A DNA stretch of 64,000 nt from Spirochaetales bacterium (lineage in GTDB: Bacteria; Spirochaetota; Spirochaetia; SZUA-6; RPPD01). Within the stretch, counting starts at the first letter, position 1. Each line of letters opens with the position of its first letter. The position numbers and the translations under genes are program-made. Positions 7,871-59,738 of the stretch are shown piece by piece. The notes beneath the pieces were generated by a model. It was given only the letters and a program-made list of their open reading frames with translations, made no database searches and was not told the origin of the DNA. The stretch is from NCBI GenBank assembly GCA_016929065.1, contig JAFGJO010000042.1:16543-80542 (forward strand), in the 5' to 3' direction.

Positions 7871-10015
7871 ATGTGGAAAATGTTTCCACAATCCATATAC
7901 TCTAACTGTATGAATAAAATCGTAAAAGATTTGTTTCAGGCGCCTGCTGCCTGCTGTTTCCTTGATGAAAAACAAAATATCACCGACTGGAATCCCGCGG
8001 CTGAAATGCTCTTTTCTATTCCGGAGCCGAACACTTCAATACCGCTTGTCCAGGCACTTGAAAACCTGTGCAGGGGAAAATCATTTTTTTTCACCGAAGA
8101 ATCCAAAAGCTGCACTGCCCGGCAGATTGCAGACCGCGTACAACTCCTGATCAGAAGCACTCAAGAAACAACACCCTCCTGCCATTTTATTATCCATAAC
8201 AATGCTCAGGAGTATCTGAAGATATCGGTTGCCACAATGGCCCGGGGACGCACCAGGCTTCTTTCTGTTGATGATATCTCTCCACTGTTACAGAAACAGG
8301 AATGGTGTGAGCTTCGCATGTCTTTTGAGGTTCTCATCAGAGACCTGTCAAAAATACTTATTTCAATTAAATTCAGCGATCTCTCATGGATTGATTCATT
8401 TTTACTGTATATCATGACCTTTCTCAATGCCGACAGGGGGTTTTTATTCATTACAGAGCCTTCAGTAGATATTCCGCACCATATTTTCAAATGCACAATC
8501 CCGGTGATAAATTCGAAACCGGGAAAACCTGTTTTTTCCCACGAAAATTCAAACAGAAAAATAGATGGAATCCTCACCAAAAATTCTGAACCCCTGGTTT
8601 TCACCACGGGCAACGGTTCGGTTGATAACGGTCTTTTCAAGGAACTCGTTTCCATTATCGGGTATAATCCAAATGCTCTGTTTTATCTTCCTGTTGTACT
8701 GGATAATAATTTTTTCGGTTTTTATATTTTTACTGCGCTGTCAAAGAGTTTCAGGTGGTCATCACCGCTCCTTGAAATCTTTTCGCATGTCAGCACGATA
8801 ACCGCTGCCCGTTTTGACCGCGAAGGGTCCATCGCAAAAATAAAGGAAATTGAACAGGCCAATGAAACACTTCAGGACAAGTTTCTGCACTCCCAGCGCA
8901 TGGATGCCATTGGCAGGCTTGCGGGCGGAGTGGCCCACGATTTCAACAATATTCTGAGCTCAATACTTGGACATGCTGAATTAATCCTCGAAGATTATTC
9001 CCATATCGATGGTCTCAATCTTTACACCGATGAAATTATCAAATCAGCCCAGCGTGCCGCATCACTGACCCAGCAGCTTTTGATATTCGGAAAAAAACAG
9101 ACAACTGATCCCCGGCCGATAAATCCCGCCCGCTTAATCGCTGATTTGCAGAAAATGATACTTCGAATTCTTGGCGAAGATATTATTTTTTCTTCTCACA
9201 TCGATGACAAGGCCCCCGACATCATGTTCGACCAGTCCCAATTTGATCAGGTTATCATGAACCTGATCGTCAATGCCCGGGAAGCCATGCCTCAAGGCGG
9301 TTCATTATTTATTTCAGTAACAACCTTGGAGAAAAGCGGAATGATACCTTCTGCAGGATTTACCCACGATGCTGATACATATGTACTGATCACTATAAAG
9401 GACACCGGAGAAGGGATGCACGCAGAAACAAAGCCCTTTCTCTTTGAACCTTTTTTTACAACCAAAAAGGATTCCGGCCATGTCGGACTTGGCCTTTCCA
9501 CTGTCTATGCCATTTGCACCCAGCATGGAGGATACATTGAAATAGAAAGCAAAGAAGGACAAGGGACTACCGTATTCCTGTACATTCCCGCTGCACAACA
9601 CAATAATGCCGAAGCGGAGCTAAAAATACCAGCCAAACAAATCCCCGCGAACAGTGTTATCATGCTTGTCGAGGATGAAGATGCCCTTCGGGCAGTAATC
9701 GCAAAACAGCTGAAAAAAAAGCAGCTTGTTGTCTTTGATGCCGAGTCACCTGAAACAGCAATCAAAAAAAGCAGGGAATATAAAAACACCATAGACCTGC
9801 TGATCACTGACATCATCATGCCGAAGATGAACGGCAAACAGCTCTATGATCTGCTAAAAAAAGAACGCCCCTGCTTAAAGACCCTGTTTATATCAGGGTA
9901 TTCTTATGACGTACTCTCAACGCACGGGATAATTCCGGAAGAAATCAATTTTTTGCCGAAACCTTTTTCACTGGATCAACTGCAAAATAAAATAGCGGAA
10001 ATATTACAGAGTTGA
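7871..10015 (+). CDS. Hybrid sensor histidine kinase with a C-terminal receiver domain
   Basis: It has a HisKA H-box (VAHDFNNIL), an HATPase_c G-box (GHVGLGLS) and a receiver domain (LVEDED...DIIMPKMNG). The N-terminal sensory region is PAS/GAF-like. Confidence 0.85.
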   Translation: MWKMFPQSIYSNCMNKIVKDLFQAPAACCFLDEKQNITDWNPAAEMLFSIPEPNTSIPLVQALENLCRGKSFFFTEESKSCTARQIADRVQLLIRSTQETTPSCHFIIHNNAQEYLKISVATMARGRTRLLSVDDISPLLQKQEWCELRMSFEVLIRDLSKILISIKFSDLSWIDSFLLYIMTFLNADRGFLFITEPSVDIPHHIFKCTIPVINSKPGKPVFSHENSNRKIDGILTKNSEPLVFTTGNGSVDNGLFKELVSIIGYNPNALFYLPVVLDNNFFGFYIFTALSKSFRWSSPLLEIFSHVSTITAARFDREGSIAKIKEIEQANETLQDKFLHSQRMDAIGRLAGGVAHDFNNILSSILGHAELILEDYSHIDGLNLYTDEIIKSAQRAASLTQQLLIFGKKQTTDPRPINPARLIADLQKMILRILGEDIIFSSHIDDKAPDIMFDQSQFDQVIMNLIVNAREAMPQGGSLFISVTTLEKSGMIPSAGFTHDADTYVLITIKDTGEGMHAETKPFLFEPFFTTKKDSGHVGLGLSTVYAICTQHGGYIEIESKEGQGTTVFLYIPAAQHNNAEAELKIPAKQIPANSVIMLVEDEDALRAVIAKQLKKKQLVVFDAESPETAIKKSREYKNTIDLLITDIIMPKMNGKQLYDLLKKERPCLKTLFISGYSYDVLSTHGIIPEEINFLPKPFSLDQLQNKIAEILQS

Positions 10016-27547: not shown

Positions 27548-27665
27548 TATTCCAAAGGATATTTTCAGAAACGCAGATTTTTGCTGCAAGGACGCTGAAA
27601 AATCCTGAGGAAGATATGACACGAAGTTTCGATATTACAAGGCTTCTGCCTTTTAAATAGTAAAT

Positions 27666-27714
27666 GGAGTTTTATTATTCTCCTTAAAAACTTTTTCGAG
27701 AATAATAAAACTCC
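27666..27714. repeat. Perfect 17 bp inverted repeat with a 15 nt loop (ggagttttattattctc ... gagaataataaaactcc)
   Basis: I read this directly from the sequence. It lies 60 nt upstream of the tRNA gene. Confidence 0.8.
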
Positions 27715-27773
27715 AAGGTTTGTCGGTAATGTACCTTTCTTGTCGGGAAGATCGTACATTATTGACAAACACC

Positions 27774-27847
27774 GGGCCTATAGCTCAGTTGGTTAGAGCA
27801 ACGGACTCATAATCCGTGGGTCCCAGGTTCAAGTCCTGGTGGGCCCA
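27774..27847 (+). tRNA. tRNA with a CAU anticodon (elongator Met, or lysidine-modified tRNA-Ile2). CCA is not encoded
   Basis: It folds as a cloverleaf with acceptor GGGCCTA/TGGGCCC, D-arm AGCTCAGTTGGTTAGAGC, anticodon loop CTCATAA and T-arm GGTTCAAGTCC. Confidence 0.85.
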
Positions 27848-27882
27848 TTCTTTCCACTGTGCATCCTGCACAGTGGAAAGAA
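27848..27882 (+). terminator. Perfect 16 bp palindrome hairpin immediately 3' of the tRNA (putative terminator/processing structure, no U-tract)
   Basis: The arms are ttctttccactgtgca and tgcacagtggaaagaa, separated by a tcc loop. Confidence 0.5.
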
Positions 27883-27897
27883 TGCAGAAATCGAGAA
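27858..27897. repeat. 40 bp direct repeat, copy 1 (tgtgcatcctgcacagtggaaagaatgcagaaatcgagaa)
   Basis: It is 39/40 identical to copy 2 at 28174-28213. Confidence 0.85.
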
Positions 27898-28081
27898 TTG
27901 CAATTCCAGACTCTTTGCAAAATTAACAGCATTTTATTTCAACTATTCGTATTTCTGCACGAGATTTCTGTGGCTGGCCATCCATGGCCAGAAACTATCA
28001 ATCCATTTCCTGGAATTCAATCAAAATAATACTGTTTCATTCTAAATCTCTTGGTTTCTCCACAATTACTATACCGTTCCG

Positions 28082-28122
28082 TGGAGTTTTGTACTAAAAC
28101 CCTGTTTTGGTACAAAACTCCA
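28082..28122. repeat. Perfect 13 bp inverted repeat with a 15 nt loop (tggagttttgtac ... gtacaaaactcca)
   Basis: It shares the ggagtttt/aaaactcc arm ends and the 15 nt loop size with the IR at 27666-27714. Confidence 0.8.
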
Positions 28123-28173
28123 AATTTACTCCATGCGAAGCAAGGAGTAAAACGAACATCCTGTTCAGAGAAA

Positions 28174-28213
28174 TGTGCATCCTGCACAGTGGAAAGGATG
28201 CAGAAATCGAGAA
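28174..28213. repeat. 40 bp direct repeat, copy 2
   Basis: It matches copy 1 with a single a/g difference. The spurious ORFs in this tract share the translation CILHSGK(N/D)AEIEN. Confidence 0.85.
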
Positions 28214-48439: not shown

Positions 48440-48533
48440 TGTCATGGCATAATGTAAAGTATAAAACCTTCTATATATAACATTTTCCAGGCTGGAAATA
48501 GTCGGTAAGAATATATCGTTGCAAGGGGTTATT

Positions 48534-51500
48534 ATGAATACAGTCTTACAAGCCCTTCATGATTCCTGTGTTCCGCGAAAGAGCGTCTTTGACAAATCCC
48601 GTAAGGACGTAGTCCTTCACCTGGGAGACCTCCTAACAGGAAAACTCAAGGAAAAAGATGCGGAGCTTTTCTTTGATGAGAACTTTGTCACCAAGGGCAT
48701 GAAGTCGTTGATTGAGAAGACTTTCCAGCGCCTTTGCGGGAAGAAAGACCAGGCTGCGACGTTTCTGCTCTCACAGGCCATGGGCGGCGGCAAGACACAC
48801 TCAATGCTCGCCCTGGGATTGCTTGCAAAATATCCGGCTGCGAGGGCGAAATTATGGAAAGAATCAAAGCTCGACGACATGGCGATCCGGGTGATCGGCT
48901 TTGACGGCAGGGAATCAGACTACCCATTCGGGATCTGGGGCTCTATTGCCGAGCAGTTGGGAAAAAAGGATCTGTTCAAGAACCTCTACACTCCCCTTCA
49001 GGCGCCCGGGATCACCTCATGGATCAATCTCCTTCAAGGCGAGCCGACGGTGATCCTGCTCGATGAGCTTCCGCCATACTTTATGAGCGCCATGTCCAAA
49101 TCCGTGGGCGACAGCAACCTGGCCGCGGTGACAACGACCGCAATTTCCAACCTGATGGTCGCAGCCAACAAAACGGAACTTAATAACATCGTTATTGTCA
49201 TTTCAGACCTGTCGGCAACTGCATATTCCAACCTGGGCACCGGGGTCATGGCGGCCCTGGATAACCTGGAAAAAGAAACAAACCGGAGCGCTCTTGTCAT
49301 TGAACCGGTGGCGACACAGGGCGACGAGGTTTTTCACATTCTGAAGACACGGCTTTTTGAAAAATTGCCGGAAGAAAAGATAAAAACCGATGTTGCGGCC
49401 GCGTACGCGGACGCGGTGAAGAAGGCAAAACAGATGGAGCTCACCGCTGCGACGCCGGAAAGTTTTGCAGCCGAGATTAAAGATTCATATCCCTTTCATT
49501 TTTCCCTGCGCGATTTATACGGCCGCTTCAAGGAAAATCCCAATTTTCAGCAGACGCGCGGGCTTTTGCGCATGATGCGCTCGATTATTGCCAATATATG
49601 GGAAAGCGGCAAGGCAAAAAAACTGTATCTAGTACATCCGTATGACATCGATTTGAATGACGGCGACATTTTTACGGAGTTCGACCGCATCAATTCAAGT
49701 CTCTCGGAAGGAGTACGCACCGACATCGCGAACAGCGGCCATTCGCACGCCGAGGAGCGCGACGCGGAATTGAAGACCACAGACGCAACGGACGCGGCAA
49801 AACTCATCTATGTGTCCTCGCTTTCCACAGCACAGAAGGCGGTTATCGGCCTGCGGGATACGGAGATTATTGCCTGGTTGTGCGCGCCCGGCCGCAGTAT
49901 GGAGCGGGTGTTGAGCGACGTGCTTGAGGTCCTGCCAAATCGGGCATGGTATCTGCATCTGTCGCTTGACGGAAGGTTGTACTTTAAAAACATCCAGAAC
50001 CTGGCGGCCAGGCTTTTCGGGATGGTGAGCACTTCCACCAAGGAAAACAAGATCCAGGAATTGCGCAAATACCTGCAATCCCTTTTTGAGCCCAAAATGA
50101 AGGATTTGTATCAGGATATCAAGGTGCTATCGCCGATAGACGACATCACCATCACGCAAGAGAAAACCACGCTCATTGTTACTGACCCTTGGCCTGACGC
50201 GAAATCCGACCAGCCGCTTAATCCGGAGTGGGTCAAGTTCCACAACGATCAGACCTGTCAGAACCGGATGTTTTTTTTGACCGGCGACCGCAACACCATG
50301 GACGAGGTGCTCAAGAACGCCGCGTACCTCAAGGCCGTGGAGGTCGTACTTGCAGAGCAGGAGCAGGAGGGCGTGTCGCCCAAGGACCCGCAGGCGAGCG
50401 AGGCCCGGCGGAGCAAGGATAAATACCAGGTACAGCTGCGCAGCGCGGTCCAGCAGACCTTTTCCACTATCGTATACCCTGCGCGCGGAAAACTGCGGCA
50501 TGAACACATCAATTTTAATTTTGACAACAACCAGTATGACGCGGAGGCACAGATCAGGCGCACACTGGCTGACAACCAGAAGTTCTCGCTGGATGCTGCC
50601 AATGAGACCTGGATCAAAAAGGCGGAGGAACGCCTGTTCGACAACCAGAATCCGGTGCCCTGGAACGAGGTGAAAAAACGCGCGGCGGTGAAGCCGGAAT
50701 GGCAATTCCACCACCCGGGCCTTTTGGAGGACATCCGGGAATACGCAATAAAAACCGGGCGCTGGCGGGCGGAAGGCAACATGGTGCGCCGGGGGCCGTT
50801 TGAAAAGGAACCGACCGGCGTGAAGGTCGCGCTGAAAAGTTTTGATTCTGATACCGGCGATGCGATTCTGCAGATAATCCCTGAAAACGGCAACAAAGTG
50901 TATTACGAAATCGGCGATGCAAAGCCGACCACATCGTCACTGATCGTTACTGATTTTTCAAGTTTTCGCACCAAAGAGCTCAAGTTAACCTTTCTCTGCG
51001 TGGACGAGGGACCGGACCCGCGGCCAACGGGGAATCCTTACGTATGGAAAAATACAATTCAAATCAAATACCGGATTTACTCCCAAGGCAAGGAATATTA
51101 TGCACAGGTTGTCGCAAATCCGCCGGTACCGCTCCGCTATACTACGGAAGGCCGTGATCCGCTGGAACACGGCGTACCCTATGCCGGGGACATTCTCCTG
51201 CCGCCGGAGTGCACCATGCTTCAGGTTGTGGGCGAAAAAGACGGGGTGATGAGCAGAGTAGAGACGTTCAGGATAGACCGCAAGCCTGGCGGGGAAATAG
51301 ATCCGGACAAGCCCGCGGTCTGGTACTGCGGCAGGCATTTCCAGCACAAGCCGGGGGCGGAGGCGTTTCAGCTCCTGGACCGCGCAAAGGAACTTCGGGC
51401 AAACCTTTCATACGTGCTCGTCAATTCGGTCTCTTCGGATACGGAAGAGGCGCTCATGTACACACTACCCAAAAATCATCTGCGATCTGCTGAGGAAGTT

Positions 51501-51653
51501 GGCAATATTTGCAACAATCTGCAGGAGATGATCCCGGACGCGCATCTGACATTGAGCATCCATGAGATACACTTCACGCGAGGCCAGGACCTGCTGGACT
51601 GGATGCAAAAGGACCGGCTTTCCATTGACGTTGCCAAAGAGGTGAAACAGTGA
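48534..51653 (+). CDS. Large P-loop ATPase of the DUF499/BrxC-PglY-like type (phage-defence associated)
   Basis: It has a Walker A motif (MGGGKTHS) near residue 90 and a DE(L) Walker B motif (ILLDELPPYF), and is ~1040 aa. It is GC-rich relative to the flanks. Confidence 0.65.
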   Translation: MNTVLQALHDSCVPRKSVFDKSRKDVVLHLGDLLTGKLKEKDAELFFDENFVTKGMKSLIEKTFQRLCGKKDQAATFLLSQAMGGGKTHSMLALGLLAKYPAARAKLWKESKLDDMAIRVIGFDGRESDYPFGIWGSIAEQLGKKDLFKNLYTPLQAPGITSWINLLQGEPTVILLDELPPYFMSAMSKSVGDSNLAAVTTTAISNLMVAANKTELNNIVIVISDLSATAYSNLGTGVMAALDNLEKETNRSALVIEPVATQGDEVFHILKTRLFEKLPEEKIKTDVAAAYADAVKKAKQMELTAATPESFAAEIKDSYPFHFSLRDLYGRFKENPNFQQTRGLLRMMRSIIANIWESGKAKKLYLVHPYDIDLNDGDIFTEFDRINSSLSEGVRTDIANSGHSHAEERDAELKTTDATDAAKLIYVSSLSTAQKAVIGLRDTEIIAWLCAPGRSMERVLSDVLEVLPNRAWYLHLSLDGRLYFKNIQNLAARLFGMVSTSTKENKIQELRKYLQSLFEPKMKDLYQDIKVLSPIDDITITQEKTTLIVTDPWPDAKSDQPLNPEWVKFHNDQTCQNRMFFLTGDRNTMDEVLKNAAYLKAVEVVLAEQEQEGVSPKDPQASEARRSKDKYQVQLRSAVQQTFSTIVYPARGKLRHEHINFNFDNNQYDAEAQIRRTLADNQKFSLDAANETWIKKAEERLFDNQNPVPWNEVKKRAAVKPEWQFHHPGLLEDIREYAIKTGRWRAEGNMVRRGPFEKEPTGVKVALKSFDSDTGDAILQIIPENGNKVYYEIGDAKPTTSSLIVTDFSSFRTKELKLTFLCVDEGPDPRPTGNPYVWKNTIQIKYRIYSQGKEYYAQVVANPPVPLRYTTEGRDPLEHGVPYAGDILLPPECTMLQVVGEKDGVMSRVETFRIDRKPGGEIDPDKPAVWYCGRHFQHKPGAEAFQLLDRAKELRANLSYVLVNSVSSDTEEALMYTLPKNHLRSAEEVGNICNNLQEMIPDAHLTLSIHEIHFTRGQDLLDWMQKDRLSIDVAKEVKQ

Positions 51654-52219
51654 GCGAAGTGCTGGGATTCGGCTTTTTCCCGGAGCGCACAACGCACTGC
51701 TTTGTCGTGCACCTGCCGAATACGGCAAAGGGAGAAATCGCCATTACAGAAGAGTTTAAGTGGGCGCTTGAACAGGAATCGTTTGAAAAACATGGTCTGC
51801 AAAATCCCGACCTGAAAGTACTTCTTTCCATGGAACTCTGGAAAGAGATCGCGGACGAGGCCAAGGCCGAGTTTAACCGCAGGCTCATCCGGCATGGCGT
51901 AAAGTCCGGCAAGTGGCCGGCGAAAGGCAAGGTGCCGGTTGACCGCAACCTTGGAAAGGAACTGGTACTCCTGGCCTGGGCCGTGGAGGACGCGGACCCC
52001 GTGCTCATCCCCAATGCGGTACGCAACTGGTTGGGCTTGAGCCCGGAGGAGCGCTGGTGGCTTTTCACCATGACCAACGCGGCCACGGGCCAGGCTTTGG
52101 GCGGCCGCAACAAGGGCTGGCGTAAAGCCGTACGCTTTGCGCTCACGGAAAACCCCATCGCCGATTCAGTCATAAAAAAACGCGTGAGCGATTTTGAATT
52201 GCCGCTTTTTCGGGAGTAA
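51650..52219 (+). CDS. Small conserved protein, translationally coupled (GTGA overlap) between the ATPase and the MTase
   Basis: It is 189 aa with no catalytic motif I can see. Confidence 0.5.
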   Translation: MSEVLGFGFFPERTTHCFVVHLPNTAKGEIAITEEFKWALEQESFEKHGLQNPDLKVLLSMELWKEIADEAKAEFNRRLIRHGVKSGKWPAKGKVPVDRNLGKELVLLAWAVEDADPVLIPNAVRNWLGLSPEERWWLFTMTNAATGQALGGRNKGWRKAVRFALTENPIADSVIKKRVSDFELPLFRE

Positions 52220-52224
52220 TAACT

Positions 52225-55101
52225 TTGCCGCATAAACCACTCATTGAAACACAATTCCCCCTGGCGATCTTGAGCGCCGAAAGCTACAAGGAGCGCAAGG
52301 CCAATTTGGGACAGACGCTCACAGGTCTTGGAAAATGGTGGGGCAGAAAGCCGCTCATACTAGTACGCGCGGTCATCCTGGGTCTTCTCATGCCCGCATC
52401 CGACAATCCGGAAAAGGACCGCGAGGTATTCCTGCGCGTGCTCACCATGGACGAGGACGGTCTGTGGAAACGCAAGAGCAAAAAAATGAGCGCGGCCCAA
52501 GTTGCCGGACAATTGAGCCCGCAGGAGAGCACAGGAATTATTGAAATAAACGGCGACAAGCCCGCCTGGAAACGCGGTCTGGACGCAACGGACAAACTGC
52601 GGCTTGAGAAACTCGCCTTTAACCGCCTGGATTATGAGGAAAAGCTTACGCTTTGCGACCGGCCGGAGCAGATTGACGGGCCCAGTGAAGAAAGCTGGCA
52701 GGAAATAAACCGGCATTTGGGTACTTGCGCCGCAACCCTGCAGGAACTCTTCGCCGAGCTTTCCCGGAAAGCATTTGGCCGACTCGCGCGAGTTGGTGAT
52801 GTGTTTTGCGGGGGCGGCTCCATTCCGTTTGAAGCCGCCCGGCTGGGGCTTGAAGCCTACGGAAGCGACTTGAATCCCGTGGCCGCGCTGTTAACCTGGG
52901 CCGCAATCAATTTGATCGGCGGTGGGAAAGAGGTACAGGAGCAGGTGCGCAGTGCGCAGAAGGAAGCTTGGGAAGCGGCGGACAAACAAATCACGGAATG
53001 GGGGATCGAACACGACAGTGCGGGGAATCGTTCAGACGCCTATCTCTATTGCATAGAAGTAAAAAGTCCGGCCACTGGTCTGTGGGTGCCTTTGGCGCCT
53101 AGTTGGGTAATTGGAGAGAGAAGCAAAGTCATCGCGGTTTTGAAAAAAAATGAAAAGCGGCACGGATATGATATCAATATTGTAACCGGGGCAACAGACA
53201 AGCAGATGAAGGAAGCCAAAACCGGTACGGTGCAGGACGGTGAACTGGTCTGCCCGGAAACAGGCAAGCGCTACAGCATTGCCAGCCTGCGCGGGGATCG
53301 CCGGGATGAAGGGGAATCCGTTTACGGCCTGCGGCTTTGGGAAAACGAGGACCTTGTCCCGCGGCCTGAAGACACATTTCAGGAACGGCTTTACTGTGTG
53401 CGCTGGGTCACTCCGGAAGGAGAGCGGCTCTATAAAAGTGTGACGCAGGAGGATGAGGCGCGGGAACAAAAGGTGCTTGCGCTTTTGAAAGAACGGTTTT
53501 CCGAATGGCAGGAGAAGGGGTATATTCCGTCAAAACCAATTACACGCGGTGGCGACAAAACAGAAGAACCGATCCGGACACGCGGCTGGACGCACTGGCA
53601 CCATTTGTTTAATCCAAGGCAATTGTTGGTACATGGGTTGATATCAAGTATTAATACTTCAAGAGATAAAATAAATAGGGTATTCCTTCTGTTGTGGATT
53701 GGTAGCCTATCAAATCGTGATTCAAGAATTGTTGGCTGGGTTCCTTCATATGGAGTTGAGACTACTGATCAAGTATTTACAAACCAGGCATTAAATACAA
53801 AATTTAACTGGGCGGCAAGAGGTTTACTAGGATATAAAACAGTCACTAATATTAGGGCCAATTATAATGTAAACATTAACTCCAGTAAAATTGAACCACA
53901 AGATGCTCGAGTAGCTCAAAGTGATAATCACTTATGGATAACAGACCCACCATATGCTGATGCTATAAATTATCATGAGATTCTCGATTTTTTCCTCGCC
54001 TGGTATGAAAAACACCTACCCAAGTTATTTCCTGACTGGTATACGGACAGCCGTCCGGCTTTGGCAGTCAAGGGTACAGATGAGGATTTTAAGCACAGTA
54101 TGGTTGGAATTTACGCCAATCTCGCGGCTCACATGCCTGACGACGGCCTGCAGGTTGTTATGTTCACCCACCAAGATGCGGGCGTCTGGGCGGACCTGGG
54201 CATGATCCTCTGGGCCGCTGGACTTAAAGTGACTACTGCTTGGACGGTTGTTACAGAAACAGTATCTGCATCTGATTCCGGCAACTTTGTCCAAGGCACT
54301 GTACTTATGGTTTTACGCAAGCGCTTGGAAAGTAAAACCGTGTTTCTGGACGAGCTCTACCCGCTTGTGGACGACGAGGTGAAAAAACAGCTTGACCACA
54401 TGCACCGTGTGGACGACCAAATTCGCTCCCAGTTCGGAGACACGGACTTCCAGCTCGGCGCCTATGCCGCTGCCCTCCGTGTGCTCACAAGCTACGCGGA
54501 TATCGAAGGCCAGGATATCAAGCATGAGCTTTTCCGCACACGGACCAAGAATGAAAAATCCCCCTTTGAAAATATTATTGACCGCGCTGTCTCCATCGCC
54601 GCCGGCTACCTTATTCCGCGCGGTATTAGCCAGCAGGTTTGGCGCAATCTTGACAACATGGAGCGGCTGTATCTGCGTGGCCTGGAACTGGAACGCCATG
54701 GCGAATTGCGGCAAGGCGCTTACCAGGAACTCGCGCGCGGGTTCGGCGTGCAGGAATACACCTTTATGCTTGCAGACAAGGTAGCCAACCAGGCGAGATT
54801 CAAGACGGCAATCGAGTTCAAGCGGACGCAAATGGGCGAGGGCGACTGGGGCGGCACCCTGTTGCGCCATGTTTTATTCGCCATTCATGAGGCCGTGCGT
54901 GCGGAAAACCCGCGTGAGGGTTTTAATTACCTCAAGAACGCGCGGACGGACTATTGGGCCAGGCGAGAGGACATTCAGGAAATATTCAAGTATTTGGAGC
55001 AGGCAGCCACGCATAGTCACCTTGCGCATTGGAAACAGGACAGCGCGGCGGCGCAATTGGTACGCGGACTCGTCGCGAACGATTATGGCGGGAGCGGGTA
55101 A
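52225..55101 (+). CDS. N6-adenine DNA methyltransferase, 958 aa, DUF1156-like architecture
   Basis: It has an N-terminal KWWGRKP-type region, an AdoMet motif I (VFCGGGSIPFEA...DLNPVA) and the catalytic motif IV DPPY at about residue 570. Confidence 0.75.
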   Translation: MPHKPLIETQFPLAILSAESYKERKANLGQTLTGLGKWWGRKPLILVRAVILGLLMPASDNPEKDREVFLRVLTMDEDGLWKRKSKKMSAAQVAGQLSPQESTGIIEINGDKPAWKRGLDATDKLRLEKLAFNRLDYEEKLTLCDRPEQIDGPSEESWQEINRHLGTCAATLQELFAELSRKAFGRLARVGDVFCGGGSIPFEAARLGLEAYGSDLNPVAALLTWAAINLIGGGKEVQEQVRSAQKEAWEAADKQITEWGIEHDSAGNRSDAYLYCIEVKSPATGLWVPLAPSWVIGERSKVIAVLKKNEKRHGYDINIVTGATDKQMKEAKTGTVQDGELVCPETGKRYSIASLRGDRRDEGESVYGLRLWENEDLVPRPEDTFQERLYCVRWVTPEGERLYKSVTQEDEAREQKVLALLKERFSEWQEKGYIPSKPITRGGDKTEEPIRTRGWTHWHHLFNPRQLLVHGLISSINTSRDKINRVFLLLWIGSLSNRDSRIVGWVPSYGVETTDQVFTNQALNTKFNWAARGLLGYKTVTNIRANYNVNINSSKIEPQDARVAQSDNHLWITDPPYADAINYHEILDFFLAWYEKHLPKLFPDWYTDSRPALAVKGTDEDFKHSMVGIYANLAAHMPDDGLQVVMFTHQDAGVWADLGMILWAAGLKVTTAWTVVTETVSASDSGNFVQGTVLMVLRKRLESKTVFLDELYPLVDDEVKKQLDHMHRVDDQIRSQFGDTDFQLGAYAAALRVLTSYADIEGQDIKHELFRTRTKNEKSPFENIIDRAVSIAAGYLIPRGISQQVWRNLDNMERLYLRGLELERHGELRQGAYQELARGFGVQEYTFMLADKVANQARFKTAIEFKRTQMGEGDWGGTLLRHVLFAIHEAVRAENPREGFNYLKNARTDYWARREDIQEIFKYLEQAATHSHLAHWKQDSAAAQLVRGLVANDYGGSG

Positions 55102-55115
55102 AAGCCGAGCTTTGA

Positions 55116-55171
55116 CCAAAATCAAATTATTGGCAATAATTGCCTAAAATTGCCGATAATTTGATTTTAGG
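55116..55171. promoter_or_regulatory. 22 bp inverted repeat (2 mismatches) spanning the abiEi start codon; putative AbiEi autoregulatory operator
   Basis: The arms are ccaaaatcaaattattggcaat and attgccgataatttgattttagg, separated by an 11 nt spacer that contains the ATG. Confidence 0.5.
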
Positions 55172-55910
55172 AGAAACGACCATAAAGGACTATAGGAAAA
55201 AGATAGCGCTTTACCTCAATTCCCATAAGACGCTTAGTACTGCGGAGGCCGCCCATATTTTCCGGCAGGACGAGGTGGATTTACCAGATGCGACGATCAA
55301 TTGGCGGCTCCATGAAATGGAACAGAACGGAAGCCTTCAGCGAATCGGCCGTGGTAAATACCGTCTTCCGGACAAGCCGGTGTTTAACCCGGAAACAAAG
55401 TCATTTCAAGAAATGGCCGCTTTTATTCGCGGGCAATTCCCGCTGGTGAAGTATTGCCTTTGGGATACTGAGATAGTGCGTGCGCTTGCGCACCATATTC
55501 CCTCGCGCGCGTTTGTGATCGTGGAAGTGGAAAAAGACCCGCTTGAGGAGGTGTACGACAAGCTCAAAGACAAGTATGATTATGTGTTCCTGGCCAAAGA
55601 CTATAATCAGGCATCCGGTTTTCTCAAGAAAGATGTGTCCGCTATTTTTATAAAGCCGCTATTATCAGAAGCTCCCGTACGGATTCTCAATGGCGTCCCC
55701 GTACCAGAACTGGAAAAAATACTTGTGGACACCCATCGCGACATGGACCTGTTCAGCTTCCTGGAGGGAAAAGAATGGAACAACCTCTGGGAAAACGCAT
55801 TGGCGCGGTACACGGTCAATACGACGAGGCTCCTGCGCTACGCCGCGCGGCGTGGGCAACGAAAGTTTTTCTACAGTCTGTTTCATCCTGGAACGGTAAA
55901 AAATGATTGA
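55140..55910 (+). CDS. AbiEi-like antitoxin/transcriptional regulator (type IV TA, COG5340-like)
   Basis: It has an N-terminal winged HTH (LSTAEAAHIF...LQRIGRGKYRL), is ~250 aa, and overlaps the downstream gene by 8 bp. Confidence 0.6.
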   Translation: MPKIADNLILGETTIKDYRKKIALYLNSHKTLSTAEAAHIFRQDEVDLPDATINWRLHEMEQNGSLQRIGRGKYRLPDKPVFNPETKSFQEMAAFIRGQFPLVKYCLWDTEIVRALAHHIPSRAFVIVEVEKDPLEEVYDKLKDKYDYVFLAKDYNQASGFLKKDVSAIFIKPLLSEAPVRILNGVPVPELEKILVDTHRDMDLFSFLEGKEWNNLWENALARYTVNTTRLLRYAARRGQRKFFYSLFHPGTVKND

Positions 55911-56973
55911 TGTAAAAAAGCTAGATCAACAATGGTTTTCCTTAACAAGCAGAGAAATACATGGCGACCCGCTATTGCTTGAAAAGGTGACGAAAGCACT
56001 TTTGCTGGTTGAAAAACTCGCACATCTGGGTCTCAAATTCATCTTCAAGGGCGGCAGCGCGCTCATGTTGCTTTTGGAAAAGACCGCCAGGTTTTCGATT
56101 GATGTGGACATACTCCTGCCGCAAAAGGCGGTCAATATGGTCCTGTCCCCGGTCTTTGACGGCATTGTTTCATCAGGAATCTTTACCCGCTACGAGCCGA
56201 GCCCACGAAAAAAGACCGGAGTACTTAAAAAGGAGCATTTTCGGTTTTTTTATAATTCCTTGGTGCTGGCGGGCGGTGCTGAAGACAACATTATACTTGA
56301 TATCGTTTACGAAGACGGCCTTTACAATACAATCATTTCTCTCCCCGTGACCCTCCCGTTTCTTCCGGTTTCCGGCAAACCAGTGACCGTGTCAGTGCCC
56401 GATCTGGAAAATCTTCTTGGCGACAAACTCACCGCGTTTGCCCCGAATACGGCGGGCATTGCCTATAGAAGAAACAACGTCAGCATGTCCCTGGAAATCA
56501 TCAAGCAGTTGTATGACATCGGGATTTTGTTTAAATTTGTCAACAAACCTGAACATGTCCGTGATGCCTTTGAAAATTTTGCGCGCAAACAGATACAATA
56601 CCGGGGAAGACAATTTTCCGTTGATGATATTTATGAGGACATTTTTCAGACTGCTTTGTGTTTTTCCACAAAGGGTGAATTCGGAATCGGAAACTATGGC
56701 GAACTGCAAGATGGGATAAAAAGGGTCAAAAGCTATATATTTTCAGAGAATTTCAGCATACCCAAGGGTGTAACGAATGCAAGCATTGCCGCCTACCTGG
56801 CGATGATCCTGCGCCGGAAGACCGGGAAAATTGAAAAATATGGCGAACCCGGGTCTGTCACCAGTCTGGAAATCTCTGAAAAAGAATTCAAGATGCTCAA
56901 CAAGCTAAAGAAAGGCAATCCCGAAGCATTTTATTATTGGTACAGGGCGATAGAAGCAAGGAGCAGCCGATGA
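55903..56973 (+). CDS. AbiEii-like nucleotidyltransferase toxin (DUF1814 family)
   Basis: It has the NTase-fold signature FKGGSALMLL...RFSIDVDIL. Confidence 0.7.
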   Translation: MIDVKKLDQQWFSLTSREIHGDPLLLEKVTKALLLVEKLAHLGLKFIFKGGSALMLLLEKTARFSIDVDILLPQKAVNMVLSPVFDGIVSSGIFTRYEPSPRKKTGVLKKEHFRFFYNSLVLAGGAEDNIILDIVYEDGLYNTIISLPVTLPFLPVSGKPVTVSVPDLENLLGDKLTAFAPNTAGIAYRRNNVSMSLEIIKQLYDIGILFKFVNKPEHVRDAFENFARKQIQYRGRQFSVDDIYEDIFQTALCFSTKGEFGIGNYGELQDGIKRVKSYIFSENFSIPKGVTNASIAAYLAMILRRKTGKIEKYGEPGSVTSLEISEKEFKMLNKLKKGNPEAFYYWYRAIEARSSR

Positions 56974-59738
56974 TCAACCGTTTCAGTTTTCATAAAGGTA
57001 AAAAGGGGACGCGCTTTCTTGCAGACCGGCTTCAGAACGCGCGCTCCTATGACCGAATCGCGGGATTTTTCAATAGCTCACTTTTGGAATTTGCGGGCGA
57101 GGCGTTGGAAACAGTGAGTGGTAAAATCCGCATCATATGCAACTCGGAATTGCGGCCGGAAGATGTTGCCGAAGCCCAGAAAGCGGAGCAGGCCCAGAAA
57201 ACCAGTTTCTTCAAGCTCGATCCGGAGCAAGTGAGCAAGAACGCCAGGGACAGACTCACACGCCTGCATCGCCTGCTCTCTAATACGGAAAAAGCGATGT
57301 TGGAAATACGAGTTTTACCGAACGAGGCTTTCGGTCTCATCCACGGCAAAGCCGGAGTCATCTGCTTCAAGGACGGCAGTCGGACGAGCTTTCTTGGATC
57401 AGCCAATGAAACCTTCGCCGCCTGGAATCTCAACTATGAACTCGTCTGGGAGGATGACACTGTGGAGGCATGCGACTGGGTGCAGTCGGAGTTCGACCGG
57501 CTCTGGACGCACCCGCAGGCAGTGCCGCTTGCGCAGGCGGTCGTGAAGGAAATCGAGCGGCTGGTGGATCGCCGCGAACTGAATCTTGATAACTGGAAAA
57601 AACAGGCAGCGCCCGCGGGTGTGCTCGTGGAAGCACCGGTGTACCGGGAAGAGTTTGGGTTGTGGCCGCATCAGCGTTATTTTATTGACCTCGCCTGGAA
57701 AACGCATCTGGCTTTTGGAGCGCGCTATGTGCTCGCGGACCAGGTTGGCCTGGGGAAAACCGTTCAACTCGGTATGGTGGCGCAGCTTGTCGCGCTTGCC
57801 GGTAATCTGCCCGTGCTGGTGCTGTTGCCAAAGACGCTCATGGAACAGTGGCAGACCGAGTTGTGGGATTTACTGGAGGTCCCTTCTGCGCGTTGGGCGG
57901 GCAGACACTGGATAGATGAAACAGGTTATGAGCACTCCCCCGAAGGGCAGAATCCACTTCTGCATTGCCCGTGCAAGATCGGTCTTGTATCACAGGGGCT
58001 TGTCACCCGGGGGAGCGCGCAGGTAAAGGCGCTTTTAGCCCGAGAGTGGGAATGTGTCCTTGTTGACGAGGCGCACCGCGCCCGCAGGAAAAAGCTGCCC
58101 AAACCGGATGAACGCGGTCCGGCGATCGGCAATGTTGATGCGGACTGCAATAAACTGTACGGATTTCTTTTCAAGATTGCATCACGGACGCGTTCAATGC
58201 TTTTGTCTACTGCCACACCCGTGCAGATGCATCCGATTGAGGCTTGGGATATGTTACGTATGCTTGCGGAGGCAAACGATCATGTATTGGGGAGCACAGG
58301 GAGTAATTGGCGGAAACCTGAACTGGCGCTTCCATATTTATTACAAGAACAGGAAATACCGGAAGATGTACAGACGCTCTGGGAGTGGCTGCGGAATCCA
58401 TTCCCTCCAAAGTGGGAAGAGATGAATTTTGCATATCTAAGGCTGCAGCTCGGTGTGGATGATGCCCAGGCGGTTATCGCAGAGCAGTTCAGGGACTATA
58501 ACAAGCTTACGCCGGACTTGAAGACAAGAATGGATCAAAGCATGAAAAATCTATTCGGGGATCATCATCCGTTTTTGCGGTTTATCGTGCGGCGTACCCG
58601 GAAATATCTGGAAGACACAATTGATCCCGCCACCAATGAACCGTATTTAAACCGGATTGAAGTAGAGCTCATTGATGACCAGCCCGTGATTCTGGGCAGT
58701 TATTTGAAGCAGGGCTATCAGGCCGCGGAGAAGTTCTGTAAACTGCTCGCCCGCAGGGTGCGGGCCGCCGGCTTTTTTAAAACACTCCTGTTGCGACGAA
58801 TCGGAAGTTCCATAAAGGCGGGTCTTAATACCGTGAATATGATGCTGTCAAGCTGGGATATTGCAGAGCCCGGAGAGGATGAAGAGGATATCGAAGATTT
58901 ATTTGAAGATGATGACACCTCGGATGAACGGTTCTCGGAAAATACACGTTCCGAGCTCAAACAGCTTACCCGCGAGGAAACGGATATCCTTCGCGATTGT
59001 CAGCGAGCCCTTGAACAAGGCCTAAGCCAGCGTGAAGGTGCAGATCCCAAGCGGGATGTCGTCATCGAGTTTCTAAAAAACAAACGATGGGCTGAAGACG
59101 GTTGTATACTGTTTTCACAATATTTTGATACCGCGAAATGGATTGGTGAGGAGACAGTCCGACTGTTCCCGGATTCACCGGTTGGACTCTATGCAGGAGG
59201 CGGAAAATCAGGGATCTGGGAGAATGGCCAGTTTCTGAAAAAGTCCCGCGAGGAAATAAAAGCCAAGGTTAGAAGCGGAGAAATCAAAATTCTTGCGGGA
59301 ACAGATGCCGCGAGCGAAGGTTTGAACCTGCAGGCTTTGGGAACGCTCATCAACGTGGACTTACCATGGAATCCGACGCGACTTGAGCAGCGCAAGGGGC
59401 GAATACAGCGTATTGGACAATTTCGCGATAAAATAAAAGTGCTTAACTTGCGGTATAAAGATTCAGTCGAGGACAAGGTACATCAGGTTCTGTCGGGACG
59501 TCTGCAGGACATCCATGAATTGTTCGGTCAGATTCCGGACGTGCTCAAGGATGTCTGGGTGGAAATCGCGCTTGATGATGTTGAAGCCGCTAAAAAGCTT
59601 ATCGAGGATCTGCCCAAAATGAATCCGTTCGACAACCGTTATTCAAAACTGGAAATGATTTCCGGCTGGGACACCTGGAACAAAGTGCTTAATAAACAGG
59701 ATAAGTTATACAAACTAAGGGAAGGTTGGGGGCAATAA
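56970..59738 (+). CDS. PLD-family nuclease domain fused to a SNF2/SWI2-type helicase
   Basis: The N-terminus has an HKD motif (HGKAGVICFKDGSRTSFLGSANET). The helicase has motif I (GLGKTVQ), a DEAH box (LVDEAHRAR) and C-terminal motif VI (QRKGRIQRIGQ). Confidence 0.8.
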   Translation: MINRFSFHKGKKGTRFLADRLQNARSYDRIAGFFNSSLLEFAGEALETVSGKIRIICNSELRPEDVAEAQKAEQAQKTSFFKLDPEQVSKNARDRLTRLHRLLSNTEKAMLEIRVLPNEAFGLIHGKAGVICFKDGSRTSFLGSANETFAAWNLNYELVWEDDTVEACDWVQSEFDRLWTHPQAVPLAQAVVKEIERLVDRRELNLDNWKKQAAPAGVLVEAPVYREEFGLWPHQRYFIDLAWKTHLAFGARYVLADQVGLGKTVQLGMVAQLVALAGNLPVLVLLPKTLMEQWQTELWDLLEVPSARWAGRHWIDETGYEHSPEGQNPLLHCPCKIGLVSQGLVTRGSAQVKALLAREWECVLVDEAHRARRKKLPKPDERGPAIGNVDADCNKLYGFLFKIASRTRSMLLSTATPVQMHPIEAWDMLRMLAEANDHVLGSTGSNWRKPELALPYLLQEQEIPEDVQTLWEWLRNPFPPKWEEMNFAYLRLQLGVDDAQAVIAEQFRDYNKLTPDLKTRMDQSMKNLFGDHHPFLRFIVRRTRKYLEDTIDPATNEPYLNRIEVELIDDQPVILGSYLKQGYQAAEKFCKLLARRVRAAGFFKTLLLRRIGSSIKAGLNTVNMMLSSWDIAEPGEDEEDIEDLFEDDDTSDERFSENTRSELKQLTREETDILRDCQRALEQGLSQREGADPKRDVVIEFLKNKRWAEDGCILFSQYFDTAKWIGEETVRLFPDSPVGLYAGGGKSGIWENGQFLKKSREEIKAKVRSGEIKILAGTDAASEGLNLQALGTLINVDLPWNPTRLEQRKGRIQRIGQFRDKIKVLNLRYKDSVEDKVHQVLSGRLQDIHELFGQIPDVLKDVWVEIALDDVEAAKKLIEDLPKMNPFDNRYSKLEMISGWDTWNKVLNKQDKLYKLREGWGQ

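Follow-up and report, generated by a model that had tools for sequence, protein, structure and literature searches.

A probable AbiE cassette with its own predicted operator, embedded in a Type-2 BREX-related operon of a Spirochaetales genome

The PrrC anticodon nuclease is a tRNA-directed suicide effector encoded between the modification and restriction genes of the EcoprrI Type Ic restriction-modification (R-M) operon; the R-M proteins themselves keep it silent, without any dedicated antitoxin. The embedding of defence genes has been documented in Hma, bacteriophage exclusion (BREX), DISARM and Type I R-M systems, and embedded genes were reported in 62.7% of Hma systems, with 96.7% of embedded genes co-oriented with their host (bioRxiv 10.1101/2024.01.29.577857). 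Type-2 BREX-related (BR) systems are defined as single loci that combine a DUF499 AAA+ ATPase, a stand-alone DUF3780 protein, a DUF1156 N6-methyltransferase and an HKD(PLD)-SF2 helicase (Rakesh & Krishnan, PMC12839542). The demonstrated operators of AbiEi and Rv2827c are pairs of 23-bp inverted repeats, which lie 3 or 13 bp apart over the promoter and span 49-59 bp (PMC7319586). We compared these systems with a stretch of 64,000 nucleotides (the window) on contig JAFGJO010000042.1 of a Spirochaetales metagenome-assembled genome (MAG; GCA_016929065.1), in which an abiEi-abiEii gene pair lies inside a larger defence operon behind an inverted repeat of 51 bp. We found that the pair is very probably an AbiE toxin-antitoxin/abortive-infection cassette with its own promoter and operator, carried as embedded cargo in the junction between the methylase and helicase genes of a Type-2 BR operon.

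The AbiE pair and its host operon

The two genes of the pair were identified by profile searches. The product of abiEi (maximal open reading frame (ORF) 55140-55910, + strand, 256 codons), the predicted DUF6577-type antitoxin/repressor, matched the PADLOC AbiEi model (2e-67) and Pfam DUF6577 (2.5e-56). The product of abiEii (55903-56973, + strand, 356 codons), the predicted DUF1814 nucleotidyltransferase (NTase) toxin, matched Pfam PF08843 (DUF1814) over residues 35-232 with an E-value of 3.3e-21 (76.8 bits against a cut-off of 22.5) and the PADLOC AbiEii model PDLC02299 over its full length (2.2e-112). The two ORFs overlap by 8 bp (ATGATTGA), the abiEii ATG overlapping the abiEi stop codon. 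Part of the antitoxin ORF was found to be 100% identical to the NCBI protein JW904_09340.

An AlphaFold2 (AF2) model of AbiEi computed from 27 homologues was confident, with a mean predicted local distance difference test score (pLDDT) of 88.6 and a predicted template modelling score of 0.81; residues 1-15 were disordered. The model revealed an N-terminal winged helix-turn-helix (wHTH), formed by helices at residues 18-28, 34-42 and 50-62 and a β-hairpin at residues 67-75, followed by an α/β C-terminal domain. The top PDB matches found by Foldseek were AbiEi from S. agalactiae (6y8q; E 4.4e-6, probability 1.0) and Rv2827c from M. tuberculosis (1zel; E 1.5e-4), both aligned over about 244 columns that cover the two domains. 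The global TM-scores against these structures were modest (0.36-0.45), as would be expected if the domain orientation differs. This structural evidence, together with the genomic context, assigns DUF6577, a Pfam domain of unknown function, to AbiEi-like antitoxin/repressors.

The NTase motifs hG[GS] and [DE]x[DE] were found in AbiEii as K49-G50-G51-S52 and R63-F64-S65-I66-D67-V68-D69 (KGG[ST] and RxSIDxD in the family), which together form the GG...S.DxD signature, and G50, G51, R63, S65, D67 and D69 were invariant in an alignment of 30 family members. The residue numbers of the invariant S65 in R63-x-S65-x-D67-x-D69 happen to coincide with those of R63/T65 of S. agalactiae AbiEii in a 2026 preprint, where T65 is the phosphoacceptor beside the catalytic aspartates in a type VII mechanism. 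As evident from these results, the gene overlap, the wHTH, the NTase signature and the AbiE identity proposed in an initial annotation of the window were all recovered, and the pair is predicted to be an AbiE module with a divergent DUF6577-type antitoxin subfamily. The initial annotation had further labelled the pair as type IV toxin-antitoxin; AbiE stood, and for the type the 2026 preprint argues in favour of VII instead of IV.

The cassette is part of one tightly packed, co-directional block of six + strand ORFs (48519-59738). Upstream of the pair lie the genes for a DUF499 ATPase (48519-51653), a DUF3780 protein (51650-52219) and a DUF1156 N6-methyltransferase (52225-55101), and downstream lies the gene for a PLD/HKD-SNF2 helicase, the effector of the host system (56970-59738). 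These four genes were matched by Pfam (PF04465, PF12635, PF06634 and PLDc_2 + SNF2 + Helicase_C), by the PADLOC models DUF499, DUF3780, DUF1156_MTase and PLD_Helicase, and by NCBIfam NF042961-NF042964, the methyltransferase and helicase scoring above the cut-offs and DUF499 and DUF3780 below them. The helicase reached 1182 bits with NF042964 (cut-off 1100) and 4.6e-232 with PLD_Helicase, the match starting from residue 12 of the long ORF. On these profile matches, we assign the host operon to the four-gene Type-2 BR systems, which is also the anti-phage DUF499/DUF3780/DUF1156/phospholipase-D set of NCBIfam. Membership of Hma was considered and rejected: the Hma models matched weakly (HmaC 4e-53, HmaB 1e-30, HmaA 5e-33) compared with the DUF499, DUF1156_MTase and PLD_Helicase models (6e-180 to 7e-286), and the host operon is classed by these profiles as a relative of Hma, not as a member.

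Within the block, the helicase ATG at 56970 overlaps the abiEii stop codon (ATGA), and the helicase gene has its own AAGGAG at 56958-56963, 6 nt before this ATG. The sole real intergenic gap is the 38-80 nt that follow the methyltransferase stop codon, the size depending on the abiEi start chosen, and this gap holds the inverted repeat. The position of the pair inside a larger defence operon, between the methyltransferase and helicase genes, was as initially described; the feature had been said to begin at 55101, and this nucleotide turned out to be the last base of the methyltransferase stop codon. We also observed that the GC content of the methyltransferase gene falls sharply at 53500-54250, to 39-44% compared with 53-57% in the rest of the gene, and this stretch may be an exchanged target-recognition region.

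Cargo in the methylase-helicase junction

To describe the junction that holds the pair, we compared it with the same junction in other BR loci. The methyltransferase gene stood directly before the helicase gene in 10 of 13 plasmid systems; the other three held a Schlafen-ATPase, an AAA ATPase together with an unknown protein (this operon has Phd/VapC at another place), and a Phd-like/PIN pair. Among metagenome loci in which both gene ends were present, the two genes were adjacent in 28/34, and 6/34 contained 0.7-3.2 kb of cargo, which included a YhcG nuclease, ParA-like and AAA ATPases (twice), a TPR protein and unknowns. On contigs that had not captured the methylase, GmrSD and NERD-UvrD genes were found directly upstream of the helicase. 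The methylase-helicase junction of Type-2 BR systems is a variable and recurrent cargo slot, occupied in about 20% of the sampled loci. We also found a Phd/VapC pair between the DUF3780 and methyltransferase genes of a BR system on a Deinococcus psychrotolerans plasmid (L082, 7211-7947), a different junction, which shows that more than one BR junction can accept cargo.

Only one other locus carried AbiE in this slot, namely L001 from another Spirochaetales MAG. The BR proteins of the window and L001 were 75-86% identical, compared with 54% for AbiEi and 52% for AbiEii, and the cassettes of the window, of L001 and of a stand-alone locus (L094) were equidistant, at about 50-54% identity to one another. 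The GC content of abiEii was 45% in the window and 59% in L001, a difference of 14 points, while the flanks differed by 1-5 points. The low identity of the cassettes and the GC gap point to turnover of the cassette at a fixed slot rather than to co-inheritance, and suggest that AbiE reached the slot by separate acquisitions or cassette exchange rather than by co-evolution with the host genes. In L001, an AbiJ-like gene of low GC content (41%) was observed at 8900-9703, between the methyltransferase stop codon and the AbiE operator (Pfam Abi_C 5.2e-20; PADLOC AbiJ 5.8e-36), so that the slot there holds two stacked Abi modules.

A one-genome-per-species scan yielded 80 loci encoding DUF6577 homologues, from Spirochaetota, Bacteroidota, Syntrophia/Desulfobacterota, Calditrichia, Fibrobacterota, Balneolaceae and others. 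Perlabentimonas gracilis, Chryseolinea serpens and Algoriphagus confluentis are among the carriers in culture. The scan was seeded with a 10-sequence subset of the AbiEi alignment, the 27-sequence alignment being too diverse for this use, and a scan of genome contigs with AbiEii alone gave 86 pattern matches, none of which was confirmed. The gene order was antitoxin-first wherever both genes were found; about 13 loci, mostly on truncated contigs, contained abiEi only. Members of the same family were also observed inside other methylation-based systems: with the operator, as HsdM-AbiE-HsdS in the Type I R-M loci L018 (7897-13057) and L053 (8350-13057), and as BrxC-AbiE-PglX-like methylase inside BREX in L049 (6366-15230) and probably L017 (6367-11763). 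In L023 (7536-9757), a methylase gene lies directly downstream of the cassette. AbiE is not named in the texts of the two reports on embedded and BR systems (bioRxiv 10.1101/2024.01.29.577857; PMC12839542), and the supplements of the latter, as far as they were covered, contain no AbiE, DUF1814 or DUF6577 term. The locus adds AbiE to the systems found inside BREX-related operons.

The nesting had initially been read either as stacking of defence modules or as addiction-based stabilisation of the larger module. The variable slot supports the former, and the nesting of AbiE is best read as cargo stacking. Addiction, that is, post-segregational killing that mainly serves to stabilise the defence operon or island against deletion and not phage defence itself, is compatible with the embedded cassette, and as the main role of AbiE we consider it possible but doubtful. 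In S. suis, an integrative conjugative element is reported to be stabilised by AbiE (PMC11062541), and the classic type II pair Phd/VapC occurs in two BR loci (L082, where it sits at the DUF3780-methyltransferase junction already mentioned, and L086, where it occupies the slot). However, the slot is otherwise filled mostly by nucleases, ATPases or Abi proteins, which have no addiction logic, the locus adjoins uvrA on a 164-kb contig with no mobility genes seen within the operon, and no sequence feature separates addiction from abortive infection.

A further explanation is that AbiE has been co-opted in this Spirochaetales lineage as a working part of the BR system, with AbiEi gating expression of the HKD-helicase and AbiEii providing a tRNA-directed second line that comes into play once the BR system is inhibited, like PrrC in EcoprrI. 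The two MAGs with BR genes 75-86% identical share the position of the cassette and the ATGA coupling of abiEii to the helicase gene, the AbiEi-controlled promoter would lie directly upstream of the effector gene, and the same ATGA coupling to the downstream host gene (the hsdS ATG overlapping the abiEii stop codon) is present in both Type I R-M embeddings. We nevertheless regard co-option as unlikely: neither this AbiE nor its operator was found in any of 93 other BR loci (0/93), most of the 80 loci have the pair outside any recognised defence operon, with BR genes within 10 kb only in L001, the cassettes have diverged and differ in GC content far more than their flanks, and the window holds no further copy of the operator, such as one at the BR promoter.

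The predicted AbiEi operator and the abiEi start codon

The inverted repeat in front of abiEi spans 55118..55168, with two arms of 20 nt (55118-55137 and 55149-55168) that are 19/20 complementary and separated by an 11-nt spacer. Its score of 17 made it the third-best inverted repeat of the 64-kb window, compared with a maximum of 12 in 20 Markov-simulated windows. The near-perfect 22-bp repeat of the initial annotation is real in this sense, but its arms have 20 nt and reach about 22/23 nt only with a 1-nt bulge in the RNA fold. The nested palindrome described there, GGCAAT-A-ATTGCC, was also present (55132..55144), where it adds a third half-site of the ATTGCC type, so that three ATTGSC-type units follow one another in a 10-nt phase; this palindrome is not shared by the relatives L001, L094 and L095, whose spacers differ. 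A promoter scan revealed a sigma-70-like TTGACC-17-AATAAT (10/12 matches, 55112-55140, + strand) overlapping the left arm and spacer, with the -35-like hexamer TTGACC at 55112..55117 and the -10-like hexamer AATAAT in the palindrome spacer at 55135..55140, and with a predicted transcription start near 55147. In L094, the closest stand-alone relative, TTGACA occupies the corresponding position 6 nt ahead of the left arm, and both L094 and L095 have AAAAAT at the position of the -10-like hexamer.

A blind search for inverted repeats in the upstream regions of the 80 loci revealed that the same palindrome recurs repeatedly 5' of abiEi. We described it by the pattern CAAATT-N3-GGCA-N15-TGCC-N3-AATTTG (41 bp with 20 specified bases) and scored each locus by its best match in an interval that opens 120 nt upstream of the predicted abiEi start and closes just beyond it. 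The pattern was complete (20/20) in 17/80 loci, scored at least 18 in 27/80 and at least 14 in 57/80, and many of the lower-scoring loci were variants with a 1-nt change in spacing. Only 58 positions in the 1.1 Mb of the 80 AbiE loci scored at least 16, and those high scorers whose positions were checked lay directly 5' of abiEi or, in about 7 loci, of abiEii. The core in the window (55123-55163; CAAATTATTGGCA-N15-TGCCGATAATTTG) scored 20/20 and was the sole match of at least 16 in 64 kb; other matches in the window had at least 2-3 mismatches to a single half-site and were non-palindromic. No match of at least 16 was found in 0.97 Mb of the 93 AbiE-free BR loci.

The promoter elements were placed differently against the palindrome in different lineages, although they overlapped it throughout. 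In the window and its closest relatives, the -35 lies just before the left arm and the -10 in the spacer; the Syntrophia loci have TTGAC in the spacer and a TATAnT-like box after the right arm, and Bacteroidota have a TAnnTTTG-like box after the right arm. The outer CAAATT/AATTTG and inner GGCA/TGCC blocks were kept as sequence, at 92-100% at most positions. In addition, the clade with the recognition helix GT[LF]GWRIYDLKNK has a flipped core, ..TTGCCA...TGGCR.., compared with ..CGGCA...TGCCG.. in the TVNWRIYELV clade, as a protein-DNA contact would predict. The operator-like nature that was ascribed to the repeat at the outset is upheld by these comparisons, and its prediction as the AbiEi operator is strongly supported by the family-wide conservation, the promoter overlap, the absence from controls and the co-variation with the recognition helix. 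The consensus operator of the DUF6577 antitoxin family has no description in the literature searched; its occurrence from Spirochaetota to Bacteroidota is a testable family-level prediction.

We also observed, in a minority of loci, a second operator-like palindrome between abiEi and abiEii, where it fills part of the short intergenic region immediately 5' of the abiEii ATG (L008 ~10727, L009 ~1256, L030 ~2660, L035 ~10674, L045 ~4881, L060 ~3975 and L064 ~10671). It suggests separate control of the toxin gene by AbiEi in these loci; the window has none because its abiEi and abiEii overlap.

Other identities of the repeat were considered and set aside. It is not an intrinsic terminator, as the stem is AT-rich and followed by AGGAGAAACG with no U tract, and a terminator scan made no call. 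An integron attC-like site or insertion scar was rejected, without a dedicated test, on the grounds that the palindrome also stands 5' of abiEi in stand-alone loci, overlaps promoter elements and has no attC core motifs.

Several observations weigh against the reading of the locus as an AbiE cassette with its own operator. Pfam AbiEi_4, the antitoxin profile named initially, matched only the wing region of the abiEi product, with 19.8 bits against a cut-off of 25, whereas the AbiEii and PADLOC models passed. Searches of PDB sequences with the AbiEi profile, the AbiEii profile and the single AbiEii sequence gave nothing significant, the best matches being ArgR (E 0.08) and an NTase-like protein (E 0.62). 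The AF2 model of AbiEii, which was made from a single sequence, had a pLDDT of 36 and was discarded. A full-text literature search for 'DUF6577' found no paper, and no experimental report of binding, toxicity or phage defence for AbiE of this type. Regarding the operator, the promoter hexamers are consensus matches only, the co-variation of helix and operator is essentially one phylogenetic event, and the transcript of the repeat is predicted to form a hairpin of -27.3 kcal/mol (z = -5.7 against shuffles, pairing 55116-55171).

This hairpin covers both TTG candidates for the abiEi start, and palindrome positions 14/28 and 15/27 co-vary symmetrically. The repeat might on these grounds work chiefly at the RNA level, as a hairpin of the polycistronic BR transcript that serves for attenuation, for processing by an RNase or for masking translation and uncoupling the methyltransferase from the downstream genes, and not as a DNA operator. 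We consider this very unlikely, given that no U tract or terminator call accompanies the stem, that the CAAATT and GGCA bases themselves are kept across phyla while only 50-61% of sites show complementarity at the mid-arm mirror positions 8/34 and 9/33, that in stand-alone loci the palindrome overlaps promoter elements whose predicted transcription start lies inside or after it, so that the full hairpin would not be transcribed, and that no Rfam family matched the repeat (the sole match was a spurious mir-15 with 21 bits against a cut-off of 57). An RNA-level role beside that of the predicted operator is possible but secondary.

The initial annotation had placed the repeat around an abiEi ATG, and no ATG was found there. 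In the frame that opens after the TAA at 55137, translation could begin at TTG 55140, within the spacer, at TTG 55161, within the right arm, or at ATA 55182, which lies 14 nt past the repeat and 8 nt after a Shine-Dalgarno-like AGGAG (55169..55173, + strand). TTG 55140 would be outside a transcript that begins near 55147. The N-termini of homologues fall near residues 12-15 of the long abiEi ORF, and two relatives have equivalents at the aligned start: GAGGG-N9-ATA in L001, and GAGGTG-N8-ATT in L094, where an in-frame TGA lies just upstream and no canonical start precedes codon 26. From the homologue N-termini, the disordered residues 1-15, the AGGAG spacing and these equivalents, ATA 55182 is the likeliest start. 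With this start, the repeat would lie wholly upstream and abut the ribosome-binding site.

A similar situation was found across the family. The aligned start codon of the 80 loci was ATG in 43, ATC in 20, ATA in 8, ATT in 6, TTG in 2 and GTG in 1, so that AUC, AUA or AUU (AUH) occurs in about 42% of homologues. In 17/80 loci, the stretch from the upstream in-frame stop to profile position 10 contained no ATG, GTG or TTG. Locus L095, which encodes homologue P0004, was set aside as a pseudogene with in-frame stop codons and no abiEii. Many DUF6577 abiEi genes (those of L003, L009, L015, L021, L026-L028, L032, L033, L035, L045, L046, L050, L059, L071, L078 and L094, and that of the window with ATA 55182) appear, from these alignments, to start at AUC, AUA or AUU. 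The NCBI call for abiEi of the window (P0001, 211 aa) begins with an internal GTG, codon 46, so that the wHTH is cut and the DNA-binding domain is mostly missing; an ATA start explains this call, and AUH starts likewise account for truncated database entries such as P0001 and P0003 (214 aa). Frequent AUH starts in this family of antitoxin genes are undescribed in the literature searched and form a second testable prediction at the level of the family.

Taken together, the following mechanism is proposed. As judged from S. agalactiae AbiE and M. tuberculosis Rv2827c/MenAT, the two arms of the repeat would be bound by two AbiEi molecules, which would use their N-terminal winged helices for this and repress the TTGACC-17-AATAAT promoter. 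The abiEi gene would be translated weakly, probably from ATA 55182 behind AGGAG, and abiEii from its overlapping ATG. AbiEii would be an NTase that blocks translation by modifying tRNA 3' ends, and AbiEi would neutralise it, possibly by inducing autophosphorylation, and keep it inactive until infection or loss of the locus upsets the balance. Since the helicase ATG overlaps the abiEii stop codon, the BR effector helicase may be expressed both by read-through from the BR promoter and from the AbiEi-controlled promoter; nothing in the data shows any dependence of the BR system on the latter.

A broader model would describe DUF6577-type AbiE as a self-contained, doubly throttled cassette that lodges repeatedly in methylation-based defence operons (BR type 2, BREX type 1 and Type I R-M). 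In this model, which we consider rather unlikely as a whole, transcription is held down by the 41-bp operator and translation of the antitoxin by AUH initiation, the ATGA coupling is taken over by the cassette, the AbiEi operator becomes a control point for the helicase, and AbiEii is a PrrC-like, tRNA-directed safeguard that is set free once infection disturbs transcription or translation initiation. The embedded cassette itself is an ordinary kind of system and leaves the understanding of AbiE or BREX-like systems unchanged. Its practical value lies in annotation, where a truncated NCBI gene call of 211 aa is corrected, in the prediction of a regulator and its operator, and in the design of cloning constructs, which need to include the native start and operator.

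Elsewhere in the window, the strongest hairpins flank a tRNA-Met gene (27774-27847), in the region 27665-28213. We observed perfect repeats with 18-nt arms at 27665-27715 and 27846-27884 and a repeat with 19-nt arms at 28082-28122, two of which share TGGAGTTTT ends, as well as a 40-nt direct repeat, 98% identical, at 27858-27897 and 28174-28213. Possible explanations are that the tRNA 3' end carries an att-like duplication, or that these are copies of a terminator.

Comparison with AbiE, PrrC and embedded systems

The locus resembles PrrC/EcoprrI in that a tRNA-directed effector, as AbiEii is predicted to be, is nested in a methylation-based system. Unlike PrrC, AbiEii would be controlled by AbiEi as a cognate antitoxin, and nothing shows cross-talk with the BR system.

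The window cassette shares several features with S. agalactiae AbiE. Both systems are bicistronic, with the antitoxin gene first and the two genes overlapping, and both combine an antitoxin made of a wHTH and a C-terminal domain (6Y8Q being the top Foldseek match) with a DUF1814 NTase toxin. A long two-arm inverted repeat covers the promoter, a predicted one in the window, in both, with 49 bp in S. agalactiae and 51 bp in the window. In contrast, the antitoxins are only about 12% identical, and that of the window belongs to Pfam DUF6577 with AbiEi_4 below threshold. The predicted operator of the family has arms of 13-20 nt and a spacer of 11-15 nt, whereas that of S. agalactiae has two 23-bp repeats 3 bp apart. 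The window cassette also differs in its abiEi start, which is likely non-AUG, in being embedded in another defence operon, and in being known here from sequence alone.

The M. tuberculosis Rv2827c-Rv2826c and MenAT systems likewise have an AbiEi-like fold (1zel, the second Foldseek match) and a DUF1814 NTase toxin, and Rv2827c regulates its own expression by means of promoter-overlapping inverted repeats 13 bp apart, as the repeat in the window is predicted to do for AbiEi. However, Rv2827c uses four repeats with negative cooperativity and has a larger C-terminal domain, while the window has one palindrome and one extra half-site.

Finally, the locus was similar to the BREX-related and embedded systems described previously (PMC12839542; bioRxiv 10.1101/2024.01.29.577857) in its Hma-related DUF499/DUF1156/helicase host, in the co-oriented cargo between core genes and in the varied defence genes that occupy the slot. 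Unlike the cargo of those systems, the cargo in the window brings its own conserved, predicted operator.

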